DNA of 64,000 nucleotides, taken from positions 19,568-83,567 of the forward strand of contig CAYQIS010000003.1 of NCBI GenBank assembly GCA_964417645.1, read 5' to 3'. This document shows, in pieces, positions 7,801 to 41,357 of the stretch. The translations under genes were made by a program, and so were the position numbers. Source of the stretch: an uncultured Spirochaetia bacterium. GTDB taxonomy: Bacteria; Oederibacteriota; PGYV01. Position 1 is the first letter of the stretch, and each line of letters opens with the position of its first letter. Below the pieces are notes generated by a model. The model was not told the origin of the DNA, did no database searches, and worked only from the letters and a program-made list of their open reading frames with translations.

Positions 7801-8349
7801 TTAGATTTTATTATTTTTTTTATCCATAAGTATATACTGAGAAGCTTCCCATAAAGTTTCGGTGGTAAAATCCGGCTTTTCCCTTTTTTCATAAAAATGC
7901 TTTGCCCCGTGCCCGGATAAAAGATATATTGTTTTTGTTCCGGCTTTTTTTCCCATATTTATATCATGGGGATGATCGCCTATTACCCAGGATTCTCCAA
8001 GATTTATCGGATTTTCTTCGCAAATTTTTCTGATAAAAAAATCAGAGGGTTTCCTGCATAAGCAATTAACATCTTTTGCATGAGGACAATGAAAAACGCG
8101 ATTTATTTTAATATTTTCTTTTTTAAGGCGCTCCAAAAAATATTTATTAAATTCCATATACTGTTCTTCCGAAAAAAAACCTTCTCCAATGCCTGCCTGA
8201 TTGGTTATCACATACAAATCATAATATTTTTGCAACAAAAAAAGAGCTTTTATTGACCCTTTAATAAATACAAGATCATCTTTTTTATAAATATATCCTC
8301 TGTCTTCAATTATTGTTCCGTCACGGTCCAAAAAAAGAGCGTTTTTCAT
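7801..8349 (-). CDS. HAD-IIIA phosphatase, GmhB/histidinol-phosphatase family
   Basis: FLDRDGTI, TNQAGI, CPH....C.CRKP, IGD..D motifs. Confidence 0.88.
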   Translation of the reverse strand: MKNALFLDRDGTIIEDRGYIYKKDDLVFIKGSIKALFLLQKYYDLYVITNQAGIGEGFFSEEQYMEFNKYFLERLKKENIKINRVFHCPHAKDVNCLCRKPSDFFIRKICEENPINLGESWVIGDHPHDINMGKKAGTKTIYLLSGHGAKHFYEKREKPDFTTETLWEASQYILMDKKNNKI

Positions 8350-9509: not shown

Positions 9510-9524
9510 TCCCTGTTTTCCTCC

Positions 9525-17150: not shown

Positions 17151-17474
17151 TTAAAAAATTCCCGGAAAATTTATTCCGCCGGTTATTTTTTTCATTTCTT
17201 CTTCCGCAGTTTCATTTGCTTTATTAAGAGCTTCATTTGCGGCGGCTGTTATCAAATCTTGAATCATTTCAACATCTCCTCCGGAAATAAGCTCTTTATC
17301 TATCTTCACCGAAAGTATTCTTTTGTCACAGCTGGCCGTTACCGTTACCGCCCCTCCGCCGGAAGAAGCTTCAACATTTATATTTTTAAGATTCTCCTGA
17401 ACTTGGGCAAGTTTTGCCTGCATCTGCTGAGCCTGTTTCATAATTTGATTTATATTTCCCATTCCTCTCATCAT
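17151..17474 (-). CDS. ybaB: YbaB/EbfC nucleoid-associated protein
   Basis: MKQAQQMQ, SGGGAV, D.EMIQDLI.AA; dnaX-ybaB-recR synteny. Confidence 0.93.
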   Translation of the reverse strand: MMRGMGNINQIMKQAQQMQAKLAQVQENLKNINVEASSGGGAVTVTASCDKRILSVKIDKELISGGDVEMIQDLITAAANEALNKANETAEEEMKKITGGINFPGIF

Positions 17475-19150: not shown

Positions 19151-19165
19151 ATTATCCTTTTTCAA

Positions 19166-19253
19166 GGGACACCGGCAACACCCCGGAAAATCCTTTTACC
19201 GCTGCTCCCTTCCGGGCCTGACGGGGTTCAAGGCTGCCGGGTGTGCCGGGCCC
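19166..19253 (-). ncRNA. ffs: small signal recognition particle RNA (4.5S)
   Basis: Minus strand contains the CCGTCAGGCCCGGAAGGGAGCAGCGG domain IV inside a long GC-rich hairpin; canonical position upstream of dnaX. Confidence 0.92.
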
Positions 19254-19257
19254 ATTT

Positions 19258-19968
19258 TTATTTTTTTTCAGCCGTAGCTATCAGTGATTGTCCCATGAAA
19301 GGTTTAATCACAGATTCCGTTAATTTTACGACAGGCAGCACATACCTGTCAAATATCCTTGCCTGATTAATGGGTATTTTTTTTTCCTTAAATATTCTTC
19401 CGCTTATAAACCATCCGAACATACCCGGTAAATTACTGTAAAAAATTTCCTTTATTTCCATTTGGCTGTTTTTAAATAACTTTTCAATATCTTTTTTTTC
19501 ATATCTTTTATGGTGACCAAGGGCCCGGTCTGTTTCACCATAAATCCACTGCATGGCAGGCACCAAGATTATAAATTTACCGCCTTTTTTAAGGGCGGCG
19601 CAGGCATTTTTTACGGCTTTTGAATCATCTTTTATATGTTCCAAAACATTAAGCATAACAACCGTATCATATTTTTCTTTAATTATTTTCTTATTAGGTT
19701 TCATGATGTCCATTTTAATAATTTTTACCTTACGAGATTTTAAATATTTTTTTTTGGCATATTTAATATATGAATCATCTATATCTGTTGCCGTAACATT
19801 AACAGCATCCTTAATTAAATAATCTGTTATATTTCCGATTCCGCAGCCTATTTCAAGAACTTTTCCTCTTACGTGTTTTTTTATATTGTTGTATATCCAT
19901 TCGTTATATGAAGCAAGTTCTTTAATTTTATGAAGGGAATCCGTGAGACTTTTGGAATTTTTTATCAT
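19258..19968 (-). CDS. class I SAM-dependent methyltransferase
   Basis: VLEIGCGIG, NVLEHI, D..LGH..RY; TGATG coupling puts the start at 19968. Confidence 0.85.
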   Translation of the reverse strand: MIKNSKSLTDSLHKIKELASYNEWIYNNIKKHVRGKVLEIGCGIGNITDYLIKDAVNVTATDIDDSYIKYAKKKYLKSRKVKIIKMDIMKPNKKIIKEKYDTVVMLNVLEHIKDDSKAVKNACAALKKGGKFIILVPAMQWIYGETDRALGHHKRYEKKDIEKLFKNSQMEIKEIFYSNLPGMFGWFISGRIFKEKKIPINQARIFDRYVLPVVKLTESVIKPFMGQSLIATAEKK

Positions 19969-20669
19969 CAGTCGGTAAACCTGTATTTCAATAATGCCCA
20001 AACCGCCTTAAAACCGTCAATTGATTTAATTTTTTTTCCTTCGGCTACCGATCGTCCAAAATAACTTATTGGAACCTCATATATCCTGAAATTTTTTTTA
20101 AGCAGCTTGGCTGTGATTTCCGGTTCAATTTCAAAACCTTTTGATTTTATATCTATTGATTTAATAACATTTGCCCTGAACATTTTATAACAGGTTTCCA
20201 TATCCGTGAGAATTGTATTATAAAGAATATTTGTAATCAAATTTAATACTTTATTGGCTATATAATTAACAAACATAAATGCTCTGTGAGGCCCAAGGAA
20301 CCTTGAACCATATACAACATCCACTTCATTGTGCCTGAAAGTTGCAAGCATTATTTTATAATCTTCCGGATCATATTCAAGATCTGCATCCTGAATAATT
20401 ATAAAATCCCCTTCAGCTTTTGCAATTCCTTCTTTTAATGCGGCGCCTTTACCCGAATTTTTTTCTTTAAGAATAAGTGTGATCCATTTCTGACCAGCAC
20501 ATATTTTTTTTAATTTTTCCCTGGTTCCGTCTGTTGAACAATCATCAACTATTATTAATTTTTTTTCAATCCCCTCAAGCTTTACGGCTTTAACCCTTCT
20601 TATAATTTCTTCTATTGTGGCTTTTTCGTTGTATACGGGCATTACAACACATAAAACCTTTTTTTTCAT
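19968..20669 (-). CDS. GT2 glycosyltransferase (polyprenol-phosphate glycosyltransferase-like)
   Basis: MPVYNE, VDDCSTDGT, GKGAA, QDADLEY, GSRF, TDMETCYK. Confidence 0.9.
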   Translation of the reverse strand: MKKKVLCVVMPVYNEKATIEEIIRRVKAVKLEGIEKKLIIVDDCSTDGTREKLKKICAGQKWITLILKEKNSGKGAALKEGIAKAEGDFIIIQDADLEYDPEDYKIMLATFRHNEVDVVYGSRFLGPHRAFMFVNYIANKVLNLITNILYNTILTDMETCYKMFRANVIKSIDIKSKGFEIEPEITAKLLKKNFRIYEVPISYFGRSVAEGKKIKSIDGFKAVWALLKYRFTD

Positions 20670-22477: not shown

Positions 22478-23150
22478 TTTTCTCCCTGAACCAGCTCTGC
22501 GGCCTGGAAGATAACACATAAACTTTTACATTTTTCTTTCTTCCCCAATTAAGCGCTTCCTGTGTGGTATTATAACAAAGATCTATCCTATTTCCTTTAA
22601 TAGCGCCGCCTGTATCGCCTGTCCATGCAAAACCATAACCTTCAACATAAATTAAAGATCTTAAAGCTATTACTTTAGGGTCAACAGCGGCTATTCCGTG
22701 CCTTGTACGCCATCCAAGTTTTGTAATACCCGCCCAATTTAGCGTGTTATCTTCCGGAGAACTGTCATAAGCCGTTGCTTCCATCTTATGAACAAATTGA
22801 GCGTAAGTAACTTTCGGAACCGTTACGGGATTTTTTTTATTTGATATGCCTTTTAACATAAAACCCTGAACAGGTTTTTTTATAATTTTTGATTCATATA
22901 ATTTTATGCTTTTTATTTTATTTTTTCCCAATAAATATTCTTTATAAACAGAATTTCTGTAACCGTCTTCGCCTTCTTTCAGCCAAACTTCCCATCCTTT
23001 TTCAATAAAATTGCTTTTTTTTATTAACGGCTGTATCGTTATTGATTCTTTTTTTACAATGTTTCTTTCGTTAATCATTACTGCCGTAAAGCAAAAAGAA
23101 AACCAAATACAAACAAAAAAACCTACAATTAAATTAAAAATTTTTGTCAT
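22458..23150 (-). CDS. 3D-domain cell-wall enzyme (membrane-anchored)
   Basis: ATAY, IAAVDPKVI, GDTGGAIKGNRIDL. Confidence 0.88.
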   Translation of the reverse strand: MTKIFNLIVGFFVCIWFSFCFTAVMINERNIVKKESITIQPLIKKSNFIEKGWEVWLKEGEDGYRNSVYKEYLLGKNKIKSIKLYESKIIKKPVQGFMLKGISNKKNPVTVPKVTYAQFVHKMEATAYDSSPEDNTLNWAGITKLGWRTRHGIAAVDPKVIALRSLIYVEGYGFAWTGDTGGAIKGNRIDLCYNTTQEALNWGRKKNVKVYVLSSRPQSWFREKNANKKK

Positions 23151-24214
23151 ATTATCATCTTTCTTGTAATAACAGAATAAATTTCATGCGTGCCTGTCTT
23201 GCCTTTAACCTCCACGGGCGGAAGAACTTCAACATTAACCAATGGCTCAACCAGAATATAAACTTCCCTTGAAATTATAACTTCGCCGTCTTTGGCCTTG
23301 CTGCAAAGCCGGCTTGCGAAATTCACGGCATCTCCTATTACCGTGTATTCCATTCTTTCCTCTGACCCCATATTTCCCGTTACAATTTCTCCTCTTGCAA
23401 TTCCCACTCCAAGTCCAAGTTTTAAAGTAGGGTCAATTGTGTCAATCCATTCCCTCATTTTTAATTTAAACTGTGTCTGTATGTCAAGCCCAGATATTAC
23501 GGCTTTATCCGCGTCCATGTAATCTATGTATTTTGGAGCTTCTTCAAAAACAGCCAAAATTGCGTCCCCTATATATTTATTGACCCTTCCCCTGTTCTTT
23601 GTAATTATCGCCGTTGCAAAAGTAAAATAATCATTCAAAATTTTGACAACATCATGAGGATCGTGATTCTCCGTAAAAGATGTAAAACCCCTTAAATCAC
23701 AAAAAAGAATTGTTGCATTCTTTTTCTTTCCGCCAACATATATTTCATGTATATTTTTTGTTTCTATTTCGGCTTTTAAAGAAGGATCAAGATATGTCTG
23801 CAGCGTTTTTGAATATTTGTCTTTTTCTTTTTTTAATTTAAAATAATTGTGAACAAAATTATCAAAAACCTCCATTATATCTTCGTAAACATGATTAAAT
23901 CTTCTGCGTTTTTTAACCTTGTATCCCGGAGGCAGAAGTTCTTTACATCTCATTTCATATAAAAGAACCTTAAAAACGTTTCTTGCAAAACTGTTTAAAA
24001 AACTTACCGTAAGCAGATATATAAGCAAACCCAAATAAAATATTCCAAGAAATGCCATAACTATAATGTCATTCCATACTCCAAGGCTAATATATTGATG
24101 AGCAAGTTTTCGTGTTTCTTCGTATAAAGGCTGAAATCCAAAAGAAATCAACAATCCTGCCGCCATGCTTGTAAGGAGCACCTGCCCTATTGTTGCCTTT
24201 CTTTTACGGGCCAT
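23147..24214 (-). CDS. membrane-bound class III adenylate cyclase
   Basis: LFCDLRGFT, KYIGDA, YTVIGDAVNFASRL; two N-terminal TM segments. Confidence 0.9.
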   Translation of the reverse strand: MARKRKATIGQVLLTSMAAGLLISFGFQPLYEETRKLAHQYISLGVWNDIIVMAFLGIFYLGLLIYLLTVSFLNSFARNVFKVLLYEMRCKELLPPGYKVKKRRRFNHVYEDIMEVFDNFVHNYFKLKKEKDKYSKTLQTYLDPSLKAEIETKNIHEIYVGGKKKNATILFCDLRGFTSFTENHDPHDVVKILNDYFTFATAIITKNRGRVNKYIGDAILAVFEEAPKYIDYMDADKAVISGLDIQTQFKLKMREWIDTIDPTLKLGLGVGIARGEIVTGNMGSEERMEYTVIGDAVNFASRLCSKAKDGEVIISREVYILVEPLVNVEVLPPVEVKGKTGTHEIYSVITRKMII

Positions 24215-24215
24215 T

Positions 24216-24863
24216 TCAACCTCCTGCCAATTTTAAAAGCTTTTTCACGCTTACTTCTTTAAGGTCTTTAACGGTCAAATCTGCACCTTTAAGCGCGTGC
24301 TCCCTTGAAACCCCCACGCATTTAATTTTAGCCGCAACAGCGGCATCTATGCCTGCCTGAGAATCTTCTATTACAATGCATTCCTCCGCCTTTAATTTTA
24401 ATTTTTTTGCGGCTTTTAAAAATATATCCGGATATGGTTTTCCTCTTTTTACTTCAGAACCTTCCGCATCCGCATCAAAAAGATCATATATCCCTTCCGA
24501 TTCAAGAATGTGTCTTGCATTTTTGCTTGATGATGCCATACAAAGCAATATACCGGCTTTTTTAAGGTCTTTCATTAACTTTACCGTTGATGAAAATTTT
24601 TTAACACCTTCTTTTTTTAAAAAACCGTTAAAATATATCTGTTTTTCTTCACAAATTTTCTTTACGGTTTTCTCATCAAGACCTGGAAAAATTTTTAATA
24701 CTCCTTTAGCTCTTGGCATACCGTCAATTTTATTTTTAAAATCCAGAAAAGTAAATTTTTTTATTCCATAATTTTTAAACGTTTCTTTCCAGGATTTATG
24801 ATGAACAGGAGCTGTATCTATTATAACACCGTCAACATCAAAAATAACGCCTTTCAAGCCCAT
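24216..24863 (-). CDS. HAD hydrolase, beta-phosphoglucomutase family
   Basis: FDVDGVIIDT, SSSKNA, GKPYPDIF, IEDS..G; TAATG coupling to crp. Confidence 0.88.
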   Translation of the reverse strand: MGLKGVIFDVDGVIIDTAPVHHKSWKETFKNYGIKKFTFLDFKNKIDGMPRAKGVLKIFPGLDEKTVKKICEEKQIYFNGFLKKEGVKKFSSTVKLMKDLKKAGILLCMASSSKNARHILESEGIYDLFDADAEGSEVKRGKPYPDIFLKAAKKLKLKAEECIVIEDSQAGIDAAVAAKIKCVGVSREHALKGADLTVKDLKEVSVKKLLKLAGG

Positions 24864-25528
24864 TATGAACACAACTCCTTTAATTTTTCTTCATCCTTTA
24901 TAACTATTTTTCTGTTTTTCACCGATATAAGACCTTCTTTCACCATCTGTTTTAATGTTCTTGTTGTGGTTTCTCTTGTAAGTCCCGCAAAATCACCAAT
25001 GTCCTGATGGGTAAATTTTACTTTTCCAACTTCATCTTTAAAATCCATTATAACGCATGCAATTCTGCTTTTTGCATCGCCCAAAGCAAGAACTTTAATA
25101 TCTCTGTCAGCTTTTGCAAGTCTTTCAGAAAGCGTTTTTATTATTTGAAGCGAAATTGACGGTTCTTTATAAACCAAATTTTCAAAATCCGCTCTTGATA
25201 TTGACAGAGTGACAGTGTCTTCCATTGCTTCTATTGTTGCCGTTCTTGCCTCTTTGGTAAGAATCGACATCTCTCCAAAAATATCTTTTTCCTTTAATAT
25301 TGCAAGGGTTTTAATTTTTCCGTCCCTGCCGTATTTAATAACTTTTACTTCTCCCGATACAATTATATGAAGAGAATCGCCTTCATCTCCTTCGTTGAAA
25401 ATTATTTCACCGGATTTAAAATATCTTTCTTTGGCACATTTAAAAATTAAATTTAGTCCTTTTTTTGAAACACCCGAAAATAAATAATTTAATTTTAAAT
25501 ATTTTAAAAACTTTTTCTCTTGTGCCAA
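24863..25528 (-). CDS. Crp/Fnr-family transcriptional regulator
   Basis: cNMP site FGEMS...RTAT; HTH THQDIG..AGLTRETTTR. Confidence 0.92.
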   Translation of the reverse strand: MAQEKKFLKYLKLNYLFSGVSKKGLNLIFKCAKERYFKSGEIIFNEGDEGDSLHIIVSGEVKVIKYGRDGKIKTLAILKEKDIFGEMSILTKEARTATIEAMEDTVTLSISRADFENLVYKEPSISLQIIKTLSERLAKADRDIKVLALGDAKSRIACVIMDFKDEVGKVKFTHQDIGDFAGLTRETTTRTLKQMVKEGLISVKNRKIVIKDEEKLKELCS

Positions 25529-25542
25529 AAAAAACTCCGATT

Positions 25543-28486
<2,944 letters not shown>

Positions 28487-28487
<1 letters not shown>

Positions 28488-29896
28488 TATTCGCTCAAAA
28501 ACAAAGGCACATCAAAATAAACCATGCCTGAAATGTAAAAAGCCGCACTGTTTATGGCTCCGGTATTTGACAAAGCAATATTATAATCAGCTCCTGATTT
28601 CAGCGAAAAAAATTTTAAAATAAACCACTCCGCCCCCAGACCTGCAGAAGCGGCATAATTTAATTCAGGTTTTTTTATTGTTGTTCCGTCTTTAAATTTA
28701 TATTGTCTTGAAATCATTACCAAGCCGTTTCCTATTTTTGCAAATGGGACAAAATATACGTCTTTTTTCCAGCCTATATAAGAATAAGCATTAATCATCA
28801 TTTCCGTAAGAGAAATTTCATAATCATAAATATTTTTGTCTTTATTGCTCATAATAAAATTCTTCCCTTCAACTCCAAGCATAAACCAGCCGTTTAAATT
28901 AAGCAAAAACTCGGCATTTAATCCAAAACCTAAAGAATTTTCTTTTGCCACATTCTCGGGTATAAAAGGCATGAAACCCGTAAAACCAGGCCCGATTCCA
29001 AGCTTTGGGTTTTCATCCCGTATTTTTTTTAAAGAAAGCAAATATTTCACCAACTGTTGTATCTGCGGCGTAAGTTTATAAGAAGCATACGGGGCGGAAG
29101 AATATGGCCTGTAATTTATTTCTCCAAGTTTTGTGTTGTTTCTCTTTCCAAAAAAACCTTTAATTATCTGATTTTCATCAGCTGTTCCCCAATAATTATC
29201 TTTGGCTTCAATATTAACCGGCGTATAATTTGTTATATCCACGGTATTTTCTTCAAAATTATTTTTCTCAACAGAAAATTTTGTATTTGTAAGTTCCTGA
29301 AAATATAAAGCATATTTATTTTTTTTGAAAGTATTGCCTGTTATTGTAAAAGCCATTTCTTTGCCTTCCGCATAAATTCCATAGGTGTTGTTTAAAAAAT
29401 AATTGTCTTTTATAACGGCTTTTGCAAAATGTGAAAGCATAACACCAGTTGAATTAACCATATAATTATTGTTATAAAGCAGGCTTCCGCCTTCGACTTT
29501 TATGGAAGCCCTTATTATCACACAAAATTCCATTATATTTTTATATTTGCCTTCAAACAAGAATCCGTCATAAAAAGAGCTTCCGTCGTAAGGCATAAAT
29601 CTTACCGGATTTTCAGGCAGACCCTTTGCATACATTGCTCCTTTTACAACAATTCTGCCCTTTTCGCCAAATTTAACTGTTGTACCGGGCTGTATGTTAA
29701 GAACGCCCTTGGGACCAATTACAATTTCTTCATTAATAACATATGGCGAATTCTGTGCTGTCCAAAATTCTTTTTTTTCAATCAGCTGCATTGGTTTTGT
29801 TTCATTTGCGGCAAGCCTTGGCTTATCCCATGCGGCATTTAAAATTAAAGGGAAAGATATTATGCCTGTAATAATAAGAGCTGCAATTTTTTTCAA
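28487..29896 (-). CDS. secreted protein with right-handed beta-helix and C-terminal beta-barrel-like domain
   Basis: Signal peptide; SPY...L.IQPGT.V.F...G...NPV.F; NYWG; alternating aromatic strands at the C-terminus; TTG start. Confidence 0.65.
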
Positions 29897-29910: not shown

Positions 29911-32577
29911 CTATAAAATGTCTGACCCTTTGTCATCCTGAAGGTCCGGCAAAGGCGGAAGTTCATCCGGCAATTTTGCATCCATAAGTTTATCAGGTAC
30001 TTTTATTCCCGCGCCGGGAATTGTTGCCGCGGGAGTGCTGTCTTGTGATGCAGATTTCGAAATAATTTCACTGACTTTTGGAACTTCCGGAAGATCAACA
30101 GAAAGCGGCAGATCTGTTATTAAGCTGTTTGTCTGAATTTTAACGCTTTTAATGAGTTCTTGTTTTTTTTGTACGGGCTCGGTTTCAATTCCCATCGAAG
30201 CCAGATTATTCATAATCTTTGGTCTGTCAGACGGGATATTTGACGTTGGTTTGGCATCAAAAGTGTTTCTTGCAATTTTAAATCCTGAAACCGGCGGCTG
30301 CTCTTTTATATTTTTTCCGGATTCTTCGGAAGGGCTTAAATTGGAATTTAAATTGTCTTTTATTGCCGAAGATTCTATAATTATTTCCGGTGTTTTTATT
30401 TCCGATTTTAATTCCTGTGATTTTATTGAATTTCCGCTTTTTAATTCTTTGGGCAACATTATTACGAATGTTTTTCCTTTTCCTATCTCAGATTCAACCC
30501 AAATATCTCCGTTCATATTTCTCATGACTGATTTAATAATAGGAAATCTTAAACCCGTATTTGAAAATTCAGGACCGGCAGGTGACTCTGTTCCGTGGAA
30601 ATTAATAAAAAGCTGTTCTGTTTTTACTTTTGGCAGACTCATTCCAAAATCTGAAATTCTTAAATAAACGGCTTTGTCATCATCTGATGTTTTAATTATT
30701 ATCTGCCCGCCTCTGGGAGAAACTTTAATTGCCTGCGTAATAAGCTGAGAAAGCACATTTGATATTCTGGAAGAATCTCCAAGCGCCATGGCAAGTGAAG
30801 GCGCAAAATTTTGTTTAATCTCAACTTTTTTGACATCGGCCTGCGGCTGTATGGAAAGCAAAATATCGGATACTATTGTGTTTAAATCAACAGGCTGCTT
30901 GTTAATTGCAATATCACCTTTTTCAAGCCTTGCAAGTTCCGTTAGGTCATTAATCAGTCTTTCAAGCCTTGCGGATTTGTTGATTACAACTCCAAGAAAC
31001 TGCTGCTGCGCATCGGTTATTTTGCCCTCTCCTCCAAGAACCGAAGATATATAGGTTTTAATAACAGACAAAACACCTTTTAATTCCGTGTTCATCATTA
31101 AAACCGCTTCCATCCTCATATTTTCTTTTTCTGCCGGTATTTTTGATTCCTGCGCCTTTTTAATATCCGCTTCAAGAGACTCTATTTTTTTGCGCATTTC
31201 ATTTATCTTTTTTTCCGCTTCCTGATTGGCAGCTTTAATTTTTTCTTCGGACTCTTTTAAAATTTTTTCCATCTCATTTTTTGTTTTTATAACCTGCTCC
31301 TGAGCGCTTACTTTTGCATTCTCGGCATTTTTAACCGCATTTCTCAATTCGGAAATTTCATGATCGGCTCTGGAAGCTTCTTTTGAAAGTTCCTCTTCAA
31401 GTTCTTTTCCCATCTGTGACAATTTTTCCGCTTTATCTTCGGCCGCTTTCAGTCTTCCTTTTAAAATTACCAAAGCGTCCGTAAGCTTTTTAAAATCCCC
31501 TTCGGCAGGAGGAAGCAATGTTTCAAAAATATCATCATCTATTCTTGCAATGGCAGATACAACTTTTTTTAAAGGATATGAGCCGGAACCGGCGGCGGAA
31601 AAAACAAGAATAAATCCTATAACCGCCGAACCTGCCAGAATAAACAATACCGGTATGCCGTATAATGTTGAATTAACAAAAGGTTCATATTTATTTTCCT
31701 GTACGGAAGAAAGCGATTTATAATCCGAATATGGCGTAAAAACACACGGCATCATCATTATTTCCCTCATTTTTGTATAGCCCAATATGCCAAGCAGATT
31801 ATTATATTTTGCCTCTCTCACATTTGTGTCCGGAACTTCCCTTGTCATTAACGGTTTTAAATCATTGTTATCATTGATGTTTTCCGTCATTTCTTTTGAT
31901 CTGTCAGAACTTAATATTACAAGGCCTGTTGGATCGGTGATAAAATTATATCCGCGCGGAGACTGCAGCTGTTTTCTTATTTTATCAAGCATTTCGCTTA
32001 AATCTTCTCTTACATAAATAACTGACACTATTTGTTCTTTATTGTCAATTACAGGTATGTAGTATTCTCCGGTTCCCTCTTTTAAATTTCTTGTTATTAC
32101 AATTTTTTTTGAATTAATGGAAGCTGTAAAAGCCTCTTTGCCGGTATGCTTTATTTTTTCAAGACCTTTTCTGTTTACGGCTATTGAATTGCCGTTTGTC
32201 AAAAGAAGCGCCGATTCAGCGCTTAACTTTGCGGAAAGTGCAAGAAACTGTGAAATAATTTTTTGTTTTGAAGCCGGTTTGCTGTAGCTTGAATTTTTTA
32301 TAATCGGATCATTTGCCGGACCTCCAAAACGTTCAAGAATTCTTTTTTCGGAAAGCTCCAAAAGCATCGAGGAAATTTCGCTTACTTTTTGCGCAACCTG
32401 TGATTTTATAAGCTCTCGCTCTGTTTTATTTTCAGTTTCAATGATATTTGCCTGCAGTTTTTTTATTTGCGCCAGCCTTATATTGTCATTTTCAATAATA
32501 AGCCAAACCGGCGTTCCAAAAAGCAAAATTACAGCAGCAAATAATAAAATCTTGACCATCAATGAGCTTTTGCCCAT
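29911..32577 (-). CDS. membrane sensor histidine-kinase-like protein with degenerate catalytic boxes
   Basis: TM, periplasmic Cache-like, TM, coiled coil, HisKA/HATPase-like, disordered tail; H-box NTELKG, N-box SQLITQAIK. Confidence 0.8.
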   Translation of the reverse strand: MGKSSLMVKILLFAAVILLFGTPVWLIIENDNIRLAQIKKLQANIIETENKTERELIKSQVAQKVSEISSMLLELSEKRILERFGGPANDPIIKNSSYSKPASKQKIISQFLALSAKLSAESALLLTNGNSIAVNRKGLEKIKHTGKEAFTASINSKKIVITRNLKEGTGEYYIPVIDNKEQIVSVIYVREDLSEMLDKIRKQLQSPRGYNFITDPTGLVILSSDRSKEMTENINDNNDLKPLMTREVPDTNVREAKYNNLLGILGYTKMREIMMMPCVFTPYSDYKSLSSVQENKYEPFVNSTLYGIPVLFILAGSAVIGFILVFSAAGSGSYPLKKVVSAIARIDDDIFETLLPPAEGDFKKLTDALVILKGRLKAAEDKAEKLSQMGKELEEELSKEASRADHEISELRNAVKNAENAKVSAQEQVIKTKNEMEKILKESEEKIKAANQEAEKKINEMRKKIESLEADIKKAQESKIPAEKENMRMEAVLMMNTELKGVLSVIKTYISSVLGGEGKITDAQQQFLGVVINKSARLERLINDLTELARLEKGDIAINKQPVDLNTIVSDILLSIQPQADVKKVEIKQNFAPSLAMALGDSSRISNVLSQLITQAIKVSPRGGQIIIKTSDDDKAVYLRISDFGMSLPKVKTEQLFINFHGTESPAGPEFSNTGLRFPIIKSVMRNMNGDIWVESEIGKGKTFVIMLPKELKSGNSIKSQELKSEIKTPEIIIESSAIKDNLNSNLSPSEESGKNIKEQPPVSGFKIARNTFDAKPTSNIPSDRPKIMNNLASMGIETEPVQKKQELIKSVKIQTNSLITDLPLSVDLPEVPKVSEIISKSASQDSTPAATIPGAGIKVPDKLMDAKLPDELPPLPDLQDDKGSDIL

Positions 32578-32589
32578 GACGCCTCCTTG

Positions 32590-35088
32590 TTATTCCGTTT
32601 CTTCTTCGTCTTCTTTTTCCGCAACACGAGCAACAGCGCTTACGCGTTCTCCTTCTTTCATCTTAATAAGCCTTACACCCTGTGTATTTCTGCCTATTGT
32701 TTTTATATCTTTTATTTTTGTTCTTATTAAAGTTCCGCTGGTTGTAATTATCATAAGCTCATTTGTGTCATCAACAAGTTTTATATCTATAACATTGCCT
32801 GTTTTTTCGGTCACTTTCATATTTATAAGACCTTTTCCACCTCTTGATTGTTCCCTGTATTCGCTTATCTCAGTCCTTTTTCCAAAACCCAATTCTGTCA
32901 CGGTCAATAAAGTTAAATTTTTCTGTCCTGCGGGAAGTATGGTAACTCCCACGACAACATCTTTCTTGTCAAGATTTATTCCGCGTACACCCATTCCCGT
33001 TCTTCCGACTTCTCTGAAATCTTTAACTTTGCTTCTGATTGCCATTCCTTCAAGAGTTGCTATAAATATTTCGTCATTTTCGCCGGCAATTTTTGTATCT
33101 ATTAAAGTGTCATCATCATTAAGTGTTATCGCTATAATTCCCCCGCTTCTCGGGTTGCTGAACAAAGACAATCTTGACCGTTTAATTAAGCCTTTTCTTG
33201 TGCTCATTATAAGAAATTTATCTTCGGAAAAATTCTTTACGGAAACATAAGAAGCTATTTTTTCCCCTTCCTCAAGTTTAATCAAATTGACTATTGCTTT
33301 GCCCTTTGTCTGTCTTGCGGCTTCAGGAATTTCATAAACTTTAAGCCAGTGACATTTTCCTTTATTTGTAAAGAATAAAATATATTCATGTGTGTTCGAA
33401 ATAAACAGATCTTCCACAAAATCTTCATCTTTTGTTGCCATTGCCATAATTCCGCGGCCTCCGCGTTTTTGCGCTTTATAAGTGCTTACGGCCGTTCTTT
33501 TAATAAAACCGTTATGTGAAATTGTGACAACCATGTCTTCTTCCTGTATTAAATCTTCAACGCTTACTTCTTTTTCTTTTTCTATTATCTGTGTCCTTCT
33601 TTCGTCCGCAAATTTATTCTTTACTTCAAGAAGTTCCTCTGCCATAAGTTCAAATATTTTCTTTTCACTTGCCAGCAATGATTTTAATTTTTCTATTAAT
33701 TTAATCAGCTCTTTGTATTCATTTTCAATTTTCTCCACTTCAAGGGAAGTAAGCTGTTTTAATGTCATGTCAAGAATTGCCTGAGCCTGAACAGGGGTTA
33801 ATTTAAAAGCTTCAATTAAAGCCTGTTTGGCTGTTTCGGTGTTTTCGGATGCCCTGATTATTTTTATCACTTTATCAAGATATTTAAGCGCAATTTTTAA
33901 TCCTTCCAATATATGCGCTCGGCGTTCGGCTTTATCAAGCTCGAATTTTGTTCTTCTTATAATGACTTCTTTTCTGAACGCAATAAAATTTTCTATCAGT
34001 TCTTTTATATTTAAAATTTTTGGCTTTCCGTTTACAATTGCAAGAAAAATAATTCCAAATGTTGTTCTAAGCGCCGTATGTTTATAAAGCTGATTTAATA
34101 TTATTTCAGGATTGTCATTTCTGCTTACCTCTATTACAGCCCTTATTCCTTCTTTGTCCGATTCGTCCCTTAAATCCGTTATACCGTCTATTTTTTTATC
34201 CCTTACAAGTTCGGAAATATTTTCAAGAAGCTGCGCTTTATTCACCATAAACGGAAGTTCGGTTATTACAATTTGTTTTTTTCCTTTTTTTGTTTCTTCA
34301 ATTTTTGCTTTGGCCTGCATTGTAACGGAGCCTTTGCCTGTTGTATAAGCCTGTTTTATGCCTTCTCTGCCTATTATATAGCCCGCTGTCGGAAAATCAG
34401 GGCCTTTAATATATTGAAGCAGTTCTTCGGGTTTAATATTTCTTTCCCTGTTTTTTATAAAATAAACCACAGCATCAATTACTTCGCCAAGATTATGCGG
34501 GGGAATATTCGTTGCCATTCCAACGGCAATTCCCGCGCTTCCATTTACAAGAAGATGCGGAAAAGTCACCGGAAGAACGGACGGTTCTTTGTTTGACTCA
34601 TCGTATGTGGGAATAAAATCCACTGTATTTTTGTCTATACCCTGCACAAGTTCTTCTGCTATCTTTGACATCCTGGCTTCCGTATAACGCATGGCTGCAG
34701 GGGGGTCTCCGTCAACCGATCCAAAATTACCCTGCCCGTCAATCAGCGGCATCCTGAAAGAAAAATCCTGCGCCATTCTTACCATTGTGTCGTAGATTGA
34801 TGAATCACCGTGAGGGTGATAATTACCCATTACTTCACCGACTATTTTAGCCGATTTTCTGTAAGGCTTATTATGAAGAAGTCCCATGTCATATAAGCCG
34901 TAAATTATTCTTCTTTGAACCGGTTTTAACCCGTCGCGAACATCCGGCAAAGCACGTCCTACAATAACGCTCATTGAATAATCAAGATAAGAGGTCTTCA
35001 TCTCCTCTTCTATTGAAGCCTGGATAATTTTTCCGTGTATTTCCTGATCAGGTATTAAATTATTTTCTTTATTGTTCTCGTCCATCAT
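32590..35088 (-). CDS. gyrA: DNA gyrase subunit A
   Basis: [29 protein letters not shown], GyrA-box QKRGGRG, acidic tail. Confidence 0.97.
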
Positions 35089-35097: not shown

Positions 35098-36201
35098 TTA
35101 TTTTCTGATAGGCATAATTACATATAAAAGATTGGAATCTCCGGTAGGTTTCATAACGCCGGGATTCATTGAACTTATCAAATTTAATTCTATTTCATCC
35201 GTTTCAACGGCTTTTAAAAAATCCATTATATAAACAGCATTATAAGAAACTTCCATCGGGTCACCTTCATATTTTATGTCTATTTCTTCATTTGCTTCGC
35301 CTTCATCCGCCGTTTGAACACACAAATGCATTTTTCCTTTTTCAAATTTAAAAACAATGATTTTGCTTTTTTCAGAAGTAATGACGGCGGCGCGTCTTAT
35401 GGCTGAAGCAAGCTCTTCTTTTGATATTACTGCGGTCATATTAAAATCTTTTGGAATAACTTGATTATAGTTTGGATAATTCTCATCTATTACTCTTGAA
35501 ATTATTTCTATATTTTCAAGTTTAAACTCAATTATCTTTTCATAAAAATTTATTACAACATCTTTTTCGTCATCGTTAAGAACTTTTGAAATTTCCGATA
35601 TTGTTTTTAAAGGCACTATATATTCAAATTTGGCTTTAACCGTATTTTTTCCTTCTGTTTTATAATATGCCAGTCTGTGCGCGTCTGTTGCAACAGCTTC
35701 AATTTTGGAGCCGTCAAATTTAAAAAATACTCCGTTTAAATTTCTTTTTGTTGAATCCTTAAGCGCCGCATATGAAATATTGTTAATGATGTCTTTCAGC
35801 AGTTTTTGCTGTATTTTTATAGTTTCAAGCTTTTTATCATCAAGCTGAAGAGCGGGAAAATCATCCGCGGATAAACCGGGCATTTTATAATTTGATTTTT
35901 TAAATTTTACCTGAATATTGTCATTTTTATCGGATTCAATGATAATTTCCGTATCAGGCAGTTCTTTTATAAGTGATATTATTTTTTTAGGTATTGTTGT
36001 TTTTCCTTCTTCTTTTACACTTTCAACCTTACATTTTACTTTTGCGCTGATGTCCATGTCTGTTGCCGTTAGATTAAGCGTGTCTCCTTCGGCTTCAAAA
36101 AGTATATTTGACAATAAAGGCAGTGTTGCCCCCGTTGATATAAAATATTGTACAATTTGAAGAGAATTTAAAATTTCCTGTTTATTTGTTTTAATCTTCA
36201 T
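35098..36201 (-). CDS. dnaN: DNA polymerase III beta clamp
   Basis: LPLLSNIL, ATDAHRLA, YPNYNQVIP, C-terminal MPIR. Confidence 0.96.
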   Translation of the reverse strand: MKIKTNKQEILNSLQIVQYFISTGATLPLLSNILFEAEGDTLNLTATDMDISAKVKCKVESVKEEGKTTIPKKIISLIKELPDTEIIIESDKNDNIQVKFKKSNYKMPGLSADDFPALQLDDKKLETIKIQQKLLKDIINNISYAALKDSTKRNLNGVFFKFDGSKIEAVATDAHRLAYYKTEGKNTVKAKFEYIVPLKTISEISKVLNDDEKDVVINFYEKIIEFKLENIEIISRVIDENYPNYNQVIPKDFNMTAVISKEELASAIRRAAVITSEKSKIIVFKFEKGKMHLCVQTADEGEANEEIDIKYEGDPMEVSYNAVYIMDFLKAVETDEIELNLISSMNPGVMKPTGDSNLLYVIMPIRK

Positions 36202-36471
36202 TAAACAAAATCCTCCTTATAAGGTTTTTAACAATATAAATTATATTTATATTTTTATTAAATAATTTTAGATATAGTTATTATATTGTTAATAAGTGTG
36301 ATAACTTAAAAAAAATCTTAATTTAATAAAACTTTTTATTTTTGTTAATGTGAAATATTACTGTATTTTAATACAAAAAAACTGTTTTATCCACAAAAAA
36401 ATGGACAGTATTTTTTATCAACAGGATATCAACATGATAACAGGAAAATATCAACAAAATATGGCAAAAAA
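36202..36471. other. probable oriC segment (dnaA-dnaN intergenic)
   Basis: Very AT-rich; TTATCCACA at 36387-36395, TTATCAACA at 36415-36423, ATATCAACA at 36426 and 36448; AT-rich DUE-like stretch near 36235-36295. Confidence 0.7.
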
Positions 36472-37812
36472 TCATTTTTTAATTCTGTTTATTATTTCGT
36501 TTATTTCTGTTTTAAATTTTTCGTCTGATTTTATAAGATTATCAACTTTTGATATTGCATGCATCACGGTTGTATGGTCTTTTCCGCCAAAATACTGTCC
36601 TATCTGCATTAATGAATAATTTGTCAATTCTCTTGTTAAATACATTGCAACCTGTCTTGCCATTGCAATATTCTCGTGCCTTTTTTTTGAAAGCATTTCC
36701 TGAACTTTTATATTATAAAAATCGGAAACAACAGTCTGAATAAAATCAACGCCTATCTTTTTTTCCTGCTCAAATTTTGGATTTCTTATTTTTATTGCTT
36801 TTTTTGCAAGTTCAATTGTCATTTCTTCCGGTTTGCCTTCAGAAAGCTGTTTAAAGGTGACAAGAGTGCCGTTTAATTCTCTGATATTGCTGTTTATATG
36901 TTCAGCGATGAAAGCTATTACATTATCAGGGACTTTGATATTTTCTTCTTTGCATTTTTGATATAAAATTGCGACGCGGGTTTCAAAATCAGGCGGCTGA
37001 ATGTCAACAATCATTCCAGCGGAAAAACGTGATGTCAAGCGGTCTTCAATTTCAAGCTGACTTGGCGCGACATCGGAAGTGATAACTATTTGTCTGTTTA
37101 AATTTGTAAGTTCATTGAATGTGTGAAAGAATTCTTCCCTGGTTTTTTCGCCTTTTTGAAGGTATTGGATATCATCAACCAAAAGCAAATCAGCGCTTCT
37201 GTAACGATCCCTGAATTCTTCCATTTTGTTGTCTCTCATTCCCTGAACGGCTTCATACAAAAATTTTTCCGCTGTCACAACCATTATTTTTTTTGAAGGG
37301 TCTTTTTCATGCACATAGGTGCCTATGGCGTGTAAAAGATGAGTTTTTCCAAGACCGACGCCGCCGTAAATAAAAAGAGGATTATAGCTTTGACCCGGAG
37401 CTTCCGCAACGGACATACATGCGCCATGGGCAAAACGGTTTCCTGTGCCTATAATAAAATTATTAAATCTGAAATTTGCGTTTAAAGAAGGAATATTTCC
37501 TGAGGAAAAAAGGGGCAGGGGCATTTGTTTTACTTCAATGGTAATTTTTTCCGATATGTCTTTTTTTGATTCCTTTGCGGTTTCAATGTTTATTGAAGGT
37601 TTAAAGTTAAAAGTGTTTTCAAAAATATCTTCAAGCTCGTTTTTATATTTATTTAATGTTTTAACATGCAGATTGCTTTTTACAAAAATATTAAGCTTAT
37701 TGTCGGCTTCATTATAAACCGCATCGGATCCTTCAAGCCAAAGTGAAAGACTTTGATTTTCTGTTTTTACTTTTTCAAGCAGATTTTGCCAAATAAATTC
37801 TTTTGATTTCAT
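36472..37812 (-). CDS. dnaA: chromosomal replication initiator DnaA
   Basis: NPLFIYGGVGLGKTHL, DDIQ, EEFFHTFN, RELNG, GGKDHTTV. Confidence 0.98.
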   Translation of the reverse strand: MKSKEFIWQNLLEKVKTENQSLSLWLEGSDAVYNEADNKLNIFVKSNLHVKTLNKYKNELEDIFENTFNFKPSINIETAKESKKDISEKITIEVKQMPLPLFSSGNIPSLNANFRFNNFIIGTGNRFAHGACMSVAEAPGQSYNPLFIYGGVGLGKTHLLHAIGTYVHEKDPSKKIMVVTAEKFLYEAVQGMRDNKMEEFRDRYRSADLLLVDDIQYLQKGEKTREEFFHTFNELTNLNRQIVITSDVAPSQLEIEDRLTSRFSAGMIVDIQPPDFETRVAILYQKCKEENIKVPDNVIAFIAEHINSNIRELNGTLVTFKQLSEGKPEEMTIELAKKAIKIRNPKFEQEKKIGVDFIQTVVSDFYNIKVQEMLSKKRHENIAMARQVAMYLTRELTNYSLMQIGQYFGGKDHTTVMHAISKVDNLIKSDEKFKTEINEIINRIKK

Positions 37813-38049
37813 ATAATAAAACCTTTCTTTTTAATTAACAACTTATCCACAAAATTTTTTAATATTATTGAACACATAATTTACCTTAAATATAAGGCAA
37901 AAAATAAGTTTTCCACATAATTTAAATATTTTATTAACAATATTCCAAATTATTTTTTGTCATATCAAAGATTTTAAAATAAAAGTTTTTACAGCTTTTA
38001 ACGCGTTATTATATATCATAAGGTCCGGCTGTCAAGGCATATTTTTATA
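37813..38049. other. dnaA upstream region with DnaA boxes (oriC part or autoregulation)
   Basis: TTATCCACA at 37843-37851, TTTTCCACA at 37909-37917; AT-rich. Confidence 0.65.
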
Positions 38050-38689: not shown

Positions 38690-40012
38690 TTATTTCCAGT
38701 TATAAACCAAAGCCACACCCTGATTTAAATCAACAGATGCATTTGATATGAAATTAGGCCCTGTTATAAATATTTCAGGGTTAATATACATATCAAGCCT
38801 TAAATCGCCTATTACGCCTGTTAATCCGAATGCATAGGTCATAAAAGGTTCAATAGTCTGTGAATCAGATACAGAATCAAGAGTGAATTTGGTTGTTTTG
38901 GAACCGTCTGCCGCCTGGTAGCCGTTTTTATAGCCGTCAAGGTTAAGAATATCCATCCCTGCGCCGGCATTAAACGACCAAGTTTCATTAAGCTTGCCTG
39001 TTACTGCAATATTTAAAGGAACAGAAACAAAGGAATACTGGTCATAATCATCATTGTAATAACCTTTATAGTTATACACAAAATCTTCATAATAATAAAG
39101 CGGCATTGTTCTTCCCATAAGCGACAAACCGGTTGCAAGCCTGACTTTTAAAGTGTCGCCCGCCTTAATTGTTTTTCCGACAAGCGCTTTAAAATTAAGC
39201 TCGCTGTTGTAATAAACATTCTGATAGTCGTCCCACCATTGACTGGTTCTTGTTATGTCCCAGCCTTGAAGCCAGTTGGCCATGGCAACAACATAAAGGT
39301 CATCGGAAAAATTCAATCTGCCCGCAATATCAAAGTTCATTTTTGATGTTTCATAAGTATATGTTGAATTCCACTGTGAAGAACTGTTGTAGTAATTGTC
39401 TTCCTCAACATTGTTATAAAACATAAACCCAAAAGCAAGGTCAACAGGCATCCCTATTTTTAACGAAGACCCAAGTCTTGCGCTGAAATACTGGGAATTG
39501 TCAAACCCGTCGTGCGGCTATGCGCTGTAATTGTTAAGATAATCATAACTTGAATTATTACAGCCGTATTGAAGGCCTGCGCCTACAGGAATACCCCCAA
39601 AAGTATTTGCATACGAAAGACCGACAATATTGCTTAAATTGGTTGAACCTATGTAAATAAGCGGATACAAAAGTGTTGGCTGAACAGAAACGCCTATTAC
39701 GCCAAGGTCTGTATTCAAGGTCACTGAACCTGAAATATTATCTCTTGTGAATGGATCATTGTTGCTATCAAGATAAGTATAGAAATCATAGATATATTCA
39801 AACATTACCGAATTGCCAAGAGACGGAAGATTTGAAACAAACACAGAAACATCAGAAACGCTTCCGGGAATAAGCACACCGGGATAATGCGCTTCGGCAG
39901 CTTCCTGTGTAAGTGTCCTTATTCCGCTTTCGGCAACGGGCTTGGCTGCAGCGGCAAATACGGGTGCTGCCGCAAGAACAGCCGTTAAAAGAATGGCCAA
40001 AATCTTTTTCAT
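38690..40012 (-). pseudogene. outer-membrane beta-barrel-like protein interrupted by one in-frame TAG (39518-39520)
   Basis: ORFs 39518-40012 and 38690-39451 share one frame with no other stop between them; the joined product aligns by eye with the paralog at 40074-41357. Confidence 0.8.
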
Positions 40013-40073: not shown

Positions 40074-41357
40074 TTATTTCCACTCGTAAACGAGCGCTAT
40101 GCTGTTGTTAAGGTCATCGCTGTAATTGGAAATAAAGTTAGGACCTGCCATCAGAATTTCAGGGTCAATGTACATATCTATCCTGAAGTCGCCGATTTTG
40201 CCTGTTAAACCGATTGAGTAACCAAGATATGGTGATATATTTATGTCTGTATGTATGTTATTATCTTTGTAAGAAGGCTTCTGTGTATTAGGATTTTCGC
40301 TGTATTTTGTTACATAATTATTAAAGTTTATTGCGTAGAAGCTTGCGCCTGCGCTGAATGTCCATGTTTCATTAAGTTTTCCTTTTATTGCAATATTTAC
40401 AGGAACATAGCAATAAAATTCATTCCATGTTGTTGTTTCATATGTTTTTACGCCTGTGTTTTTATTTTCTGTAACCTTGTCATCGGATGCTGTTACATTT
40501 CCCAAAAGACCTGCTGAAAGAAGGACAGAAAGTGTGTCAGTTGCTTTTATTGTTTTTCCAATAAGAGCGGAAAAATCAAGCGCATTGTTGCTGTTTGTAA
40601 AAACAGAGTTTGTATCGCCTGCATCCGTAAAATCGCCGTCATTGTTTGCGTCTGTTTTTGTAATATTATTTACTCCGCCGTTTTTAAAACCAAGCCCTGC
40701 GCTTACAAGAAGGTCTTTGGTGAGCGCAAGCCTTGCGTCAGCTCCAATTCTCATATTTCCATAGGATGTGGAGCTGTCACCAACTATTGTTCCTGATGCA
40801 TTTTTATTTTTTGTGGCATCGCCGGAATTTATTGTTCCAAAGTTAAGAGCAAGGTCAAGACCTGTAAGGCCAACAGTTCCTTTTAAACCCAAATACTGAT
40901 AAAATTTTGAATATTTATCAGACGAGTTTGATGCATAAAGGGCAGGATTCTTGTTTTCGTCATATAAAGAATTAACACCATACAAAACAGCAACACCAAG
41001 TTTTCCGAAATTCATGTCTCCGGCCCATGCCAAACCAAGCACCATGCTTGGATAGTCCGGATCTATTCCGTCAAGATAAATATATTCGGTATGGCTTGCT
41101 GATACTGCAAATGTTCCCATGTCTGTTTTTAATGAAACAAGGCCTAAAAAGTCTCCTCCGCCTAAGTCTTCAATTAAAGCCGAATTGCCAAAAAGAGCGA
41201 TGTCTGTTACAAATGTGTTTGCGCCTGTAAGGCTTCCGGGATTAAGAACGCCGGGATACAAGGCCATTGATGATTCCTGCGTGTAGCTTGTAATTCCTGC
41301 GAATGCGCCTGAAGTTAAAAGCGCAAGTACTGCAAAAACAGCCAAAAATTTCTTCAT
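40074..41357 (-). CDS. outer-membrane beta-barrel-like protein
   Basis: Signal peptide; amphipathic strands; C-terminus GPNFIS...ALVYEWK. Confidence 0.7.
   Translation of the reverse strand: MKKFLAVFAVLALLTSGAFAGITSYTQESSMALYPGVLNPGSLTGANTFVTDIALFGNSALIEDLGGGDFLGLVSLKTDMGTFAVSASHTEYIYLDGIDPDYPSMVLGLAWAGDMNFGKLGVAVLYGVNSLYDENKNPALYASNSSDKYSKFYQYLGLKGTVGLTGLDLALNFGTINSGDATKNKNASGTIVGDSSTSYGNMRIGADARLALTKDLLVSAGLGFKNGGVNNITKTDANNDGDFTDAGDTNSVFTNSNNALDFSALIGKTIKATDTLSVLLSAGLLGNVTASDDKVTENKNTGVKTYETTTWNEFYCYVPVNIAIKGKLNETWTFSAGASFYAINFNNYVTKYSENPNTQKPSYKDNNIHTDINISPYLGYSIGLTGKIGDFRIDMYIDPEILMAGPNFISNYSDDLNNSIALVYEWK

Follow-up and report, generated by a model that had tools for sequence, protein, structure and literature searches.

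A conserved, probable histidine pseudokinase encoded next to gyrA in Goldbacteria-related bacteria

DivL of Caulobacter crescentus, a component of the CckA-CtrA pathway, performs an essential function that is independent of phosphotransfer: it binds DivK~P at its dimerization and histidine phosphotransfer (DHp) domain and relays a conformational change, and its role is linked to the cell cycle (PMC4211667). RocA of Streptococcus pyogenes and RetS of Pseudomonas aeruginosa are membrane kinase homologues that signal by protein contact, RocA with CovS and RetS with GacS, and not through phosphorylation of their own (PMC7380576). PsmA, a protein of the Streptomyces venezuelae polarisome, has neither the H-box histidine nor the E/DxxT/N motif, was shown not to autophosphorylate, and binds DivIVA (PMC12963549, 2026). 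Here we describe a kinase-like protein, X, encoded on the reverse strand at positions 29911-32577 of a 64,000-nt stretch of DNA (the window, in which all coordinates below are given; contig CAYQIS010000003.1 of assembly GCA_964417645.1, 19,568-83,567, forward strand) from an uncultured Spirochaetia bacterium (GTDB Oederibacteriota; PGYV01). We propose that X is a ligand-regulated histidine pseudokinase scaffold that would act by binding other proteins, plausibly gyrase, a reading to which we assign a probability of about 0.55 and which agrees with the catalytically dead sensor or scaffold suggested by an earlier, sequence-only reading of this DNA.

X is like DivL (PDB 4q20) in that a HisKA/HATPase_c core has had its phospho-acceptor histidine replaced. 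The replacement is Tyr in DivL and T, N, S, A, G, D or E in the X family, however, and the N, G1 and G2 boxes of X are far more degenerate; X also ends in a long disordered tail that carries a terminal motif. DivL is a cytoplasmic multi-PAS protein without a periplasmic sensor, whereas input to X runs through a dCache domain, a transmembrane (TM) segment and a HAMP-like linker, and DivL is alphaproteobacterial and has no link to gyrA, whereas X is found in Goldbacteria-related organisms in a gyrA context. The sequence-only reading had named DivL-like pseudokinases as precedent; the comparison is an analogy only, since residue, sensor, topology and lineage differ. PsmA too is a conserved kinase-like protein without the H-box histidine and the phosphatase motif, but it is a cytoplasmic protein of hybrid type, with PAS and receiver-like parts, and occurs in Streptomycetaceae only, whereas X is a transmembrane dCache receptor of Goldbacteria-related phyla. 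The core of RetS (PDB 6dk7, 7n0e) matches X structurally; RocA and RetS, however, each belong to a defined two-component circuit whose partner kinase is known, RetS has retained receiver domains, and both are without the X-type substitutions, the tail motif and the gyrA linkage. The canonical kinases HK853, WalK, PhoR and PnpS share with X the order sensor, TM, linker, DHp, and catalytic and ATP-binding (CA) domain. Unlike canonical HisKA kinases, X has lost the histidine, both asparagines and the G1/G2 glycines, has no regulator nearby and ends in a 176-aa disordered tail. Judged by residue, domains, topology, lineage and gene context, X is not an orthologue of DivL, PsmA, RocA or RetS. By its predicted function it belongs with the histidine pseudokinases, as the conserved loss of the histidine under purifying selection indicates.

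The gene is intact, as had been noted: the open reading frame (ORF) list and the translation give 888 uninterrupted codons with an ATG start, the coordinates including the stop codon, and about 60 homologues are known. By fold and sequence X is a member of the histidine kinase superfamily, with kinases of the HK853, WalK and PhoR types closest. The Pfam model of the HATPase_c (Bergerat) fold, PF02518, matched residues 600-711 at 60.1 bits (cut-off 26.4), and HisKA reached 23.0 bits, below its cut-off of 26.9, in a match that begins at profile position 13, past the H-box. A profile of the X family aligned with the whole DHp-CA core of Thermotoga HK853 without large gaps (E about 1e-38), and it detected the DivL core (E 7e-17) and the RetS core (E 5e-14). 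The best PDB matches of a full AlphaFold2 (AF2) model of X, built on 32 homologues, were the cores of WalK, GacS, HK853, RetS and DivL (Foldseek probability 1.0). In this model the DHp hairpin spans residues 482-552 (helices 482-515 and 522-552) and the CA domain residues 561-710. X was rejected as an equivalog of any named kinase, every NCBIfam cut-off having been missed: the best models, PnpS, WalK and PhoR, scored 106-135 bits against cut-offs of 334-725 (PnpS 135 against 400, WalK 126 against 725).

Within this well-aligned core, the catalytic residues have been replaced. The phospho-acceptor H260 of HK853 corresponds to T497 of X (codon 31087-31089), within the string MMNTELKGVL (residues 494-503), and the translation has no histidine anywhere in the DHp segment (residues 486-556; 30910-31122). 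The adjoining Glu is kept (E261 of HK853, E498 of X), and T264, the H+4 residue of the phosphatase motif, is G501 in X and Ala in distant members. X therefore departs from the HisKA phosphatase motif, defined as E/DxxT/N after the His (PMC12963549), with E498 present and Gly at H+4. The degenerate CA segment (30442-30909), delimited by Pfam and box mapping, carries the remaining substitutions: the N-box asparagines N376 and N380 are Q611 and Q615 (SQLITQAIK, 610-618), the G1 box D411-x-G413-x-G415 reads D643-F-G645-M-S647 (DFGMS), Y429-R430 is H661-G662 in an invariant FHG, and the G2 box G-T-G-L-G-L reads N673-T-G675-L-R677-F678 (NTGLRF, 673-678, which includes the TGLRF quoted earlier). We considered and rejected an alternative acceptor histidine, the DHp having none and the sole conserved cytoplasmic histidine, H661, lying in the CA lid. 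The substitutions listed by the sequence-only reading are thus all present in the translation; its statement that all catalytic boxes are lost was too strong, because the G1 Asp and first G1 Gly, the N-box Lys (K383 of HK853, K618 of X) and the central G2 Gly are retained.

X has lost the phospho-acceptor, the Asn that coordinates Mg and two glycines of the loops; in characterized GHKL enzymes this Asn and these glycines are needed for ATP-Mg binding and lid closure. The residues that X has kept (G1 Asp, N-box Lys, central glycines) are those in contact with adenine and phosphate. Because the phospho-acceptor, the Mg-Asn, the loop glycines and the H+4 residue are all replaced, canonical autophosphorylation and the E/DxxT/N phosphatase mechanism are ruled out for X as far as its predicted active site can tell, and we regard the protein as very probably inactive catalytically.

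The same degenerate state was found throughout the relatives of X. A search of 5.8 billion proteins returned 35 full-length relatives at 43-76% identity, mostly from metagenome-assembled genomes (MAGs) of Candidatus Goldbacteria/Goldiibacteriota; scores then fell from 556 to 236 bits (two distant members) and on to generic kinases at about 100 bits. Among the GTDB species representatives, 39 genomes were found to have the family; they bear the labels Goldbacteria/Goldiibacteriota, candidate division FCPU426 or Firestonebacteria, and a few are labelled Spirochaetia or Methylomirabilis, evidently in error. An exhaustive hidden Markov model (HMM) search of 1.8 billion cluster representatives added further subfamilies, the P0158/P0181 type (about 1000 aa), P0170, and P0153 with an extra GAF domain, and a mixed-subfamily profile search of a word-indexed database returned known members and generic kinases and no new ones. 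More than 25 of the approximately 60 homologues are distant, at 19-39% identity. The degenerate pattern is present in at least 30 Goldbacteria-type proteins, in about 20 of the FCPU426/Firestonebacteria type and in the further subfamilies. Common to all are the absence of an acceptor His, a DxG without the third Gly, and G2 of the form G-L-[RK]-F; the family signature is FLGxVINxSARLE, GLRF and, mostly, FHG. At the Mg-Asn position, Gln (Q615) is invariant in the Goldbacteria-type and 'long' proteins, the 'short' subfamily has His, and P0153 has Ala. Goldbacteria carry T or N at the acceptor position, the 'long' proteins S, A or G, the 'short' proteins and the P0158 type D or E, and P0153 A. 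Such drift inside an otherwise invariant helix is expected where the role of the residue has been lost and that of the helix kept. In databases family members bear generic names ('sensor histidine kinase', 'ATP-binding protein', 'HAMP domain-containing histidine kinase').

In the published phylogeny (PMC7031533) Goldbacteria, which equal the FCPU426 16S cluster, stand beside Firestonebacteria and Elusimicrobia. GyrA of the P0153 lineage has Firestonebacteria, FCPU426 and Omnitrophota as its nearest named relatives, at only 62-65% identity. On these grounds the family is judged to cover several phylum-level lineages. The exact X sequence (29911-32577) is also present in hot-spring and microbial-mat metagenomes from several studies (runs X1-X7), X1-X5 being from hot-spring mats that harbour this strain; in one related strain (X6) a contig joint skips 230 nt of X (30857-31088), with a partial fit of low likeness, probably an assembly artefact.

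Selection on X was estimated against its closest orthologue (L044, 76% identity). The ratio of nonsynonymous to synonymous substitution rates (dN/dS) was 0.086 for the whole of X (DHp 0.014, CA domain 0.026, tail 0.21), with 0.021 for gyrA and 0.029 for dnaN; dS in these comparisons is saturated (1.2-2.4 or undefined), and the ratios are approximate. Single-nucleotide polymorphisms (SNPs) among closely related strains in two hot-spring metagenome runs are unsaturated and gave the same picture: 27 of the 39 variant codons listed in X are synonymous, and 8 of the 12 non-synonymous changes fall in the tail; the HAMP-like linker, the coiled coil and the DHp are free of them. These comparisons carry out the check called for by the sequence-only reading. 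About 35 close and more than 25 distant orthologues share the substitutions under purifying selection, and canonical boxes, which would have meant recent decay, were not found in the family. The degenerate state is thus ancestral and maintained by purifying selection. Recent decay of a histidine kinase, with X on its way to becoming a pseudogene, is suggested by the degenerate boxes alone, and its likelihood is negligible given the 888 intact codons, the same substitutions in several candidate phyla, a DHp more conserved than GyrA and the excess of synonymous changes among strains; shared degenerate boxes and purifying selection together exclude it.

The strong constraint on the CA domain, together with the retained G1 Asp, N-box Lys and central G2 Gly, would also fit an X that is still an enzyme, using non-canonical chemistry as an ATPase or nucleotide sensor, or as a Ser/Thr/Tyr kinase like the GHKL anti-sigma kinases; so would H661, the only conserved cytoplasmic His, which lies in an invariant lid segment (FHG/GPEF). 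We consider this improbable, however, as Gln stands in place of the Mg-coordinating Asn (one subfamily has His there, and P0153 has Ala), two glycines of the G1 and G2 loops have become Ser and Arg-Phe in all members, and no acceptor residue is conserved at the H-box position.

The part of X under the tightest constraint is the DHp. Among 21 Goldbacteria-type species, mean identity to the window protein was 93% for the DHp, 64% for the CA domain, 51% for the linker and coiled coil, 36% for the sensor and 32% for the tail; the corresponding values were 75% for GyrA, 69% for GyrB, 65% for DnaN and 59% for DnaA. Over residues 501-540, column identity of the DHp rises to 98-99%, and against the distant subfamilies the DHp is 59% and GyrA 61% identical. 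The X DHp is thus the most conserved protein segment of this origin-proximal locus, above GyrA.

The DHp positions that specify contacts between kinase and regulator, or between two kinases, fall in this 93-99% conserved segment. This could mean that X modulates a two-component network much as RetS, RocA and DivL do, by heterodimerizing with or controlling a genuine kinase or by binding a phosphorylated orphan regulator, in which case adjacency to gyrA would bring constitutive or supercoiling-sensitive co-expression and nothing more. The DivL and RetS cores are, as described above, clear relatives of X, and the characterized histidine pseudokinases that we found all act on partner proteins (PMC4211667, PMC7380576, PMC12963549). 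We nevertheless hold this alternative, the main rival of our reading, to be somewhat unlikely. With CheY, Spo0F and PhoB receivers as phmmer queries, no receiver domain was found in the 64-kb window, in line with the earlier statement that no response regulator lies nearby; X is the only kinase core in the window, and the conserved dnaA-to-cyclase block of related loci holds no receiver gene. A candidate partner was not found, and this explanation does not account for the survival of the gyrA adjacency, often with overlapping codons, through the rearrangement of neighbouring genes across phyla. Among all family members, a receiver gene was seen close by in three 'long'-type loci only (L003, L024 and L026), where a 165-aa receiver protein and an HD-domain protein follow two ATPase genes about 4 kb from X.

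Gene order around X was compared in 41 loci with upstream sequence (from two look-ups and the genome scan), together with L044-L047 and the P0172 contig. X directly follows a same-strand gyrA in every related locus with upstream sequence, except in the P0153 lineage. The spacer is -4 to 161 nt and usually less than 50 nt, stop and start codons overlap in seven cases, and AGGAGG-like sites precede X in most related loci. In the window, 12 nt separate the stop codon of gyrA (32590-35088; Pfam DNA_topoisoIV and DNA_gyraseA_C) from the start of X, a consensus Shine-Dalgarno sequence AAGGAGG (32582-32588) lies 4 nt 5' of the X ATG, and no terminator-like site was found in the interval. The other neighbours change. 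Upstream of gyrA stands dnaN in the Goldbacteria, FCPU426 and Firestonebacteria types, where the order dnaA-dnaN-gyrA-X is conserved, and gyrB in P0170 and P0153. Downstream of X, the Goldbacteria type has a beta-helix gene, dciA and gyrB, an arrangement absent from this place in the other subfamilies; the 'long' type, including the P0172 contig, has thiE (sometimes with thiD2) and two MshEN/T2SSE ATPases of the type II secretion system (T2SS) type, the 'short' type a convergent gene, P0170 and P0153 an archease gene, and P0181 an unknown gene. In an Omnitrophota genome with a dnaA-dnaN-dciA-gyrB-gyrA cluster, a tetratricopeptide repeat (TPR) protein occupies the slot after gyrA and there is no X. 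The replication link proposed by the sequence-only reading has its basis in gene order, and it is the family-wide gyrA-X adjacency that upholds it. That reading had placed X as an insertion between gyrA and gyrB; X does lie in this interval, but so do the beta-helix gene and dciA, and the constant neighbour is gyrA.

Two further observations concern gyrA itself. In one MAG (L001/L013, 6904-9978) a DJ-1/PfpI gene separates gyrA from dnaN, and the gene caller splits gyrA into two ORFs (370 and 434 aa), the result of a frameshift or assembly error or else a truly split gene. GyrA homologues P0401 and P0425 of related uncultured lineages are 1161-1280 aa long and contain intein/homing-endonuclease domains (PF14528, PF14890). 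In the papers searched, neither a kinase-like protein linked to gyrA nor anything on Goldbacteria kinases was found. Actinobacterial gyrA, too, has a gene for a conserved membrane protein rich in Pro and Ala after it (Rv0007 in M. tuberculosis), and a membrane protein 3' of gyrA may be a recurrent theme.

The signal-input and transmission path of X is intact, from the dCache domain through TM2, the HAMP-like linker and the coiled coil to the DHp and CA domains. A hydropathy scan found TM1 at residues 10-28 (32494-32550; score 2.68, a helix in the AF2 model) and TM2 at residues 308-326 (31600-31656; score 2.67), and two TMs about 300 residues apart in all subfamilies. Between them, residues ~30-305 (31663-32490) form the periplasmic sensor that had been proposed earlier. 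Modelled alone, this region gave a predicted local distance difference test (pLDDT) score of 91 and two five-stranded modules, with the dCache architecture, in which a long N-terminal helix precedes two stacked PAS-like modules and a TM lies on either side. Its top Foldseek matches were DctB, TlpA, Tlp3, Mlp37 and McpH (E 1e-8 to 4e-10). The Pfam models dCache_1 and Cache_3-Cache_2 match X weakly, dCache_1 below threshold; in P0153, dCache_1 scores 83.6 bits, above threshold, and dCache, HAMP or GAF domains were detected in relatives of X.

The linker that follows TM2 (residues 335-375; 31453-31575) forms a HAMP-like helix-connector-helix in the AF2 model (helices 334-344, 351-354 and from 361 onward). 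Its secondary structure is compatible with HAMP, and NCBI names one orthologue HAMP-containing; Pfam HAMP (PF00672) gave no match to X at E < 0.1 and weak matches of 19-22 bits (cut-off 25) in P0153 and P0170. The long signalling helix or coiled coil (residues 376-485; 31123-31452), noted earlier as well, is part of a continuous AF2 helix from 361 to 476 with a heptad bias (a/d hydrophobicity 0.52, against 0.07 in the worst register), and its N-terminal part (residues 381-420) is 82-88% conserved.

The C-terminal tail differs from the rest of the protein. Residues 713-888 (176 aa; 29914-30441) are Ser/Lys/Pro-rich and predicted to be disordered (pLDDT 29-50), and both sequence and length vary across the family, with conservation near zero except at the C-terminal end. 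There, family conservation defines a short linear motif, ELPPLPDLQDDKGSDIL (residues 872-888; 29914-29964), in which P874 and P875 are invariant and L873, L876, P877, L879, D881, D882, K883 and G884 are at least 90% conserved. The disordered tail of about 180 aa reported by the sequence-only reading is thus present, but ELPPLPDL (872-879) is not its end, as nine residues follow (QDDKGSDIL). A terminal acidic-hydrophobic motif is kept in every subfamily: ELPPLPxLEDDKG(S/T)DII in Goldbacteria, a repeated [DE]FDA[IL]FG and a terminal LDDLNxLLGQ in the 'long' type, YDLTSFMG and DLDKLLSDIENID in the 'short' type, and G(D/E)LIE or DEIIE at the ends of the others. Tethering through a docking peptide at the end of a disordered linker is common, as in the NWETF tail of chemoreceptors. 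Inspection of the tails for a beta-clamp-binding motif (QL[SD]LF type), suggested by the neighbouring dnaN, gave no match. Some of the motifs (EFDAIFG, LDDLNxLLG, DLDKLLSDIE) may resemble the CheY-binding peptides of FliM-N and CheZ-C, a likeness that would fit the two-component alternative but on which we do not rely.

Without DHp autophosphorylation and a HisKA phosphatase motif, the output of X is most likely conformational, through regulated binding like that of DivL, RocA, RetS and PsmA (PMC4211667, PMC7380576, PMC12963549), and that X acts as a scaffold or adaptor is, from its conserved features, likely. In the mechanism that we propose, X would be a homodimeric inner-membrane receptor with a complete HisKA-type input path. 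Binding of a periplasmic ligand would reposition the DHp/CA core, which would in turn control the docking of a conserved cytoplasmic partner on the near-invariant DHp surface, while the disordered tail with its C-terminal acidic-hydrophobic motif would tether that partner. X would be translated from the gyrA transcript, and may either link signals from the envelope or the environment to supercoiling or replication, or have its dosage tied to that of gyrase.

A partner in gyrase or chromosome maintenance is proposed because X would be translated from the gyrA transcript and gyrA is its sole constant neighbour across phylum-level divergence; a gene pair that survives reshuffling, often with coupled translation, usually denotes physical or pathway partners. 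We tentatively regard gyrase, or an origin-proximal chromosome maintenance or replisome pathway, as the single most likely partner pathway. A more specific version, in which X is a transmembrane regulator of gyrase whose DHp/CA core and tail motif bind GyrA or the holoenzyme and tune supercoiling or tether it near the origin, is unlikely, and so is control of gyrase by a periplasmic ligand without phosphorylation, which this version would entail.

Several observations weigh against the scaffold reading or its link to gyrase. D643, K618, G645 and G675 are conserved, and X could hence bind nucleotide; moreover, constraint is strong throughout the CA domain and leaves a lid segment, FHGxESxAGPEF, invariant, which hints at an unnamed ligand or activity. 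No feature of the GyrA C-terminus separates the X genomes from one X-less genome, all being short and acidic. Conserved gene order does not prove physical or functional interaction, and origin-proximal clusters are conserved for several reasons. Finally, in the P0153 lineage (L048; complete chromosome OZ218778.1), where X has the extra GAF domain, a 2.3-kb insertion (region 7768-9796) places four opposite-strand genes, including one for an extracytoplasmic function (ECF) sigma factor, between gyrA and X, so that co-transcription of the two is not obligatory.

The retention of X in this chromosome in spite of the four intervening genes, and the pointers to the envelope given by the periplasmic dCache domain and the secreted beta-helix neighbour of Goldbacteria, would fit a frozen accident, with X a membrane scaffold for the envelope or division that happens to lie in a stable origin-proximal cluster. 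Clusters such as dnaA-dnaN-recF-gyrB are indeed conserved without all of their members interacting. This explanation seems to us rather unlikely, because the gyrA-X pair persists, usually within 50 nt and with seven overlaps, while its surroundings are reshuffled, and because the Omnitrophota cluster shows that the slot downstream of gyrA is otherwise free to vary. The readings weighed here overlap in part.

In the window X is part of a tightly packed same-strand cluster of the order dnaA-dnaN-gyrA-X-beta-helix-dciA-gyrB, followed by genes for a Crp-family regulator, a HAD hydrolase and an adenylate/guanylate cyclase. Upstream of gyrA on the reverse strand, dnaN (35098-36201) and dnaA (36472-37812) were recognized from their translations; downstream, Pfam identified a secreted 469-aa beta-helix/NosD-like protein directly after X (28487-29896), dciA (28191-28487), which overlaps the beta-helix gene by 1 nt, and gyrB (25543-28164), all likewise on the reverse strand. 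The beta-helix-dciA arrangement is limited to Goldbacteria-type loci, and a role of the beta-helix protein as a periplasmic companion of the dCache domain would be pure speculation. The Crp-HAD-cyclase block after gyrB (23147-25528, reverse strand) is a cyclic-nucleotide module kept in nearly all Goldbacteria-type loci. A perfect sigma-70 consensus, TTGACA-16-TATAAT, lies 5' of dnaA (38035-38008), and perfect DnaA boxes flank the gene (36387-36395 and 37843-37851). The replication origin may not adjoin dnaA, since the cumulative GC-skew minimum and a switch in gene strand lie near 50-52 kb, about 14 kb away.

Further features of the window stand apart from X. Antisense ORFs opposite X and gyrA (30152-30667 and 32441-33250, forward strand) are low-complexity Ser/Phe/Ile-rich shadows of Lys/Glu-rich coding sequence and not genes. 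A bacterial small signal recognition particle (SRP) RNA (RF00169, 70 bits; 19159-19257, reverse strand) lies directly upstream of dnaX (17471-19165, reverse strand) and is abutted by an ORF with a TTG start (19258-20001). Just upstream of the dnaA promoter region, two reverse-strand genes (38690-39451 and 40074-41357) encode paralogous proteins without a Pfam match; both end in ALVY(N/E)WK, the longer has a signal-peptide-like N-terminus, and they resemble outer-membrane beta-barrels.

What is new beyond the sequence-only reading is the phylum-spanning conservation of the dead state and the family-wide linkage to gyrA. Histidine pseudokinases are few (we found DivL, RocA, RetS and PsmA), and each has exposed an unexpected principle of signal wiring. 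The X family is unlike these in combining a full input for extracellular ligands with no phosphorylation output, in a dead DHp that is more conserved than gyrase, and in its attachment to gyrA. If its partner is gyrase or the replisome, X would represent a direct signalling route from the envelope to the chromosome and a new class of gyrase regulator; even with an ordinary regulator as its partner, the family would be a natural example of kinase surfaces retained after catalysis was abandoned.

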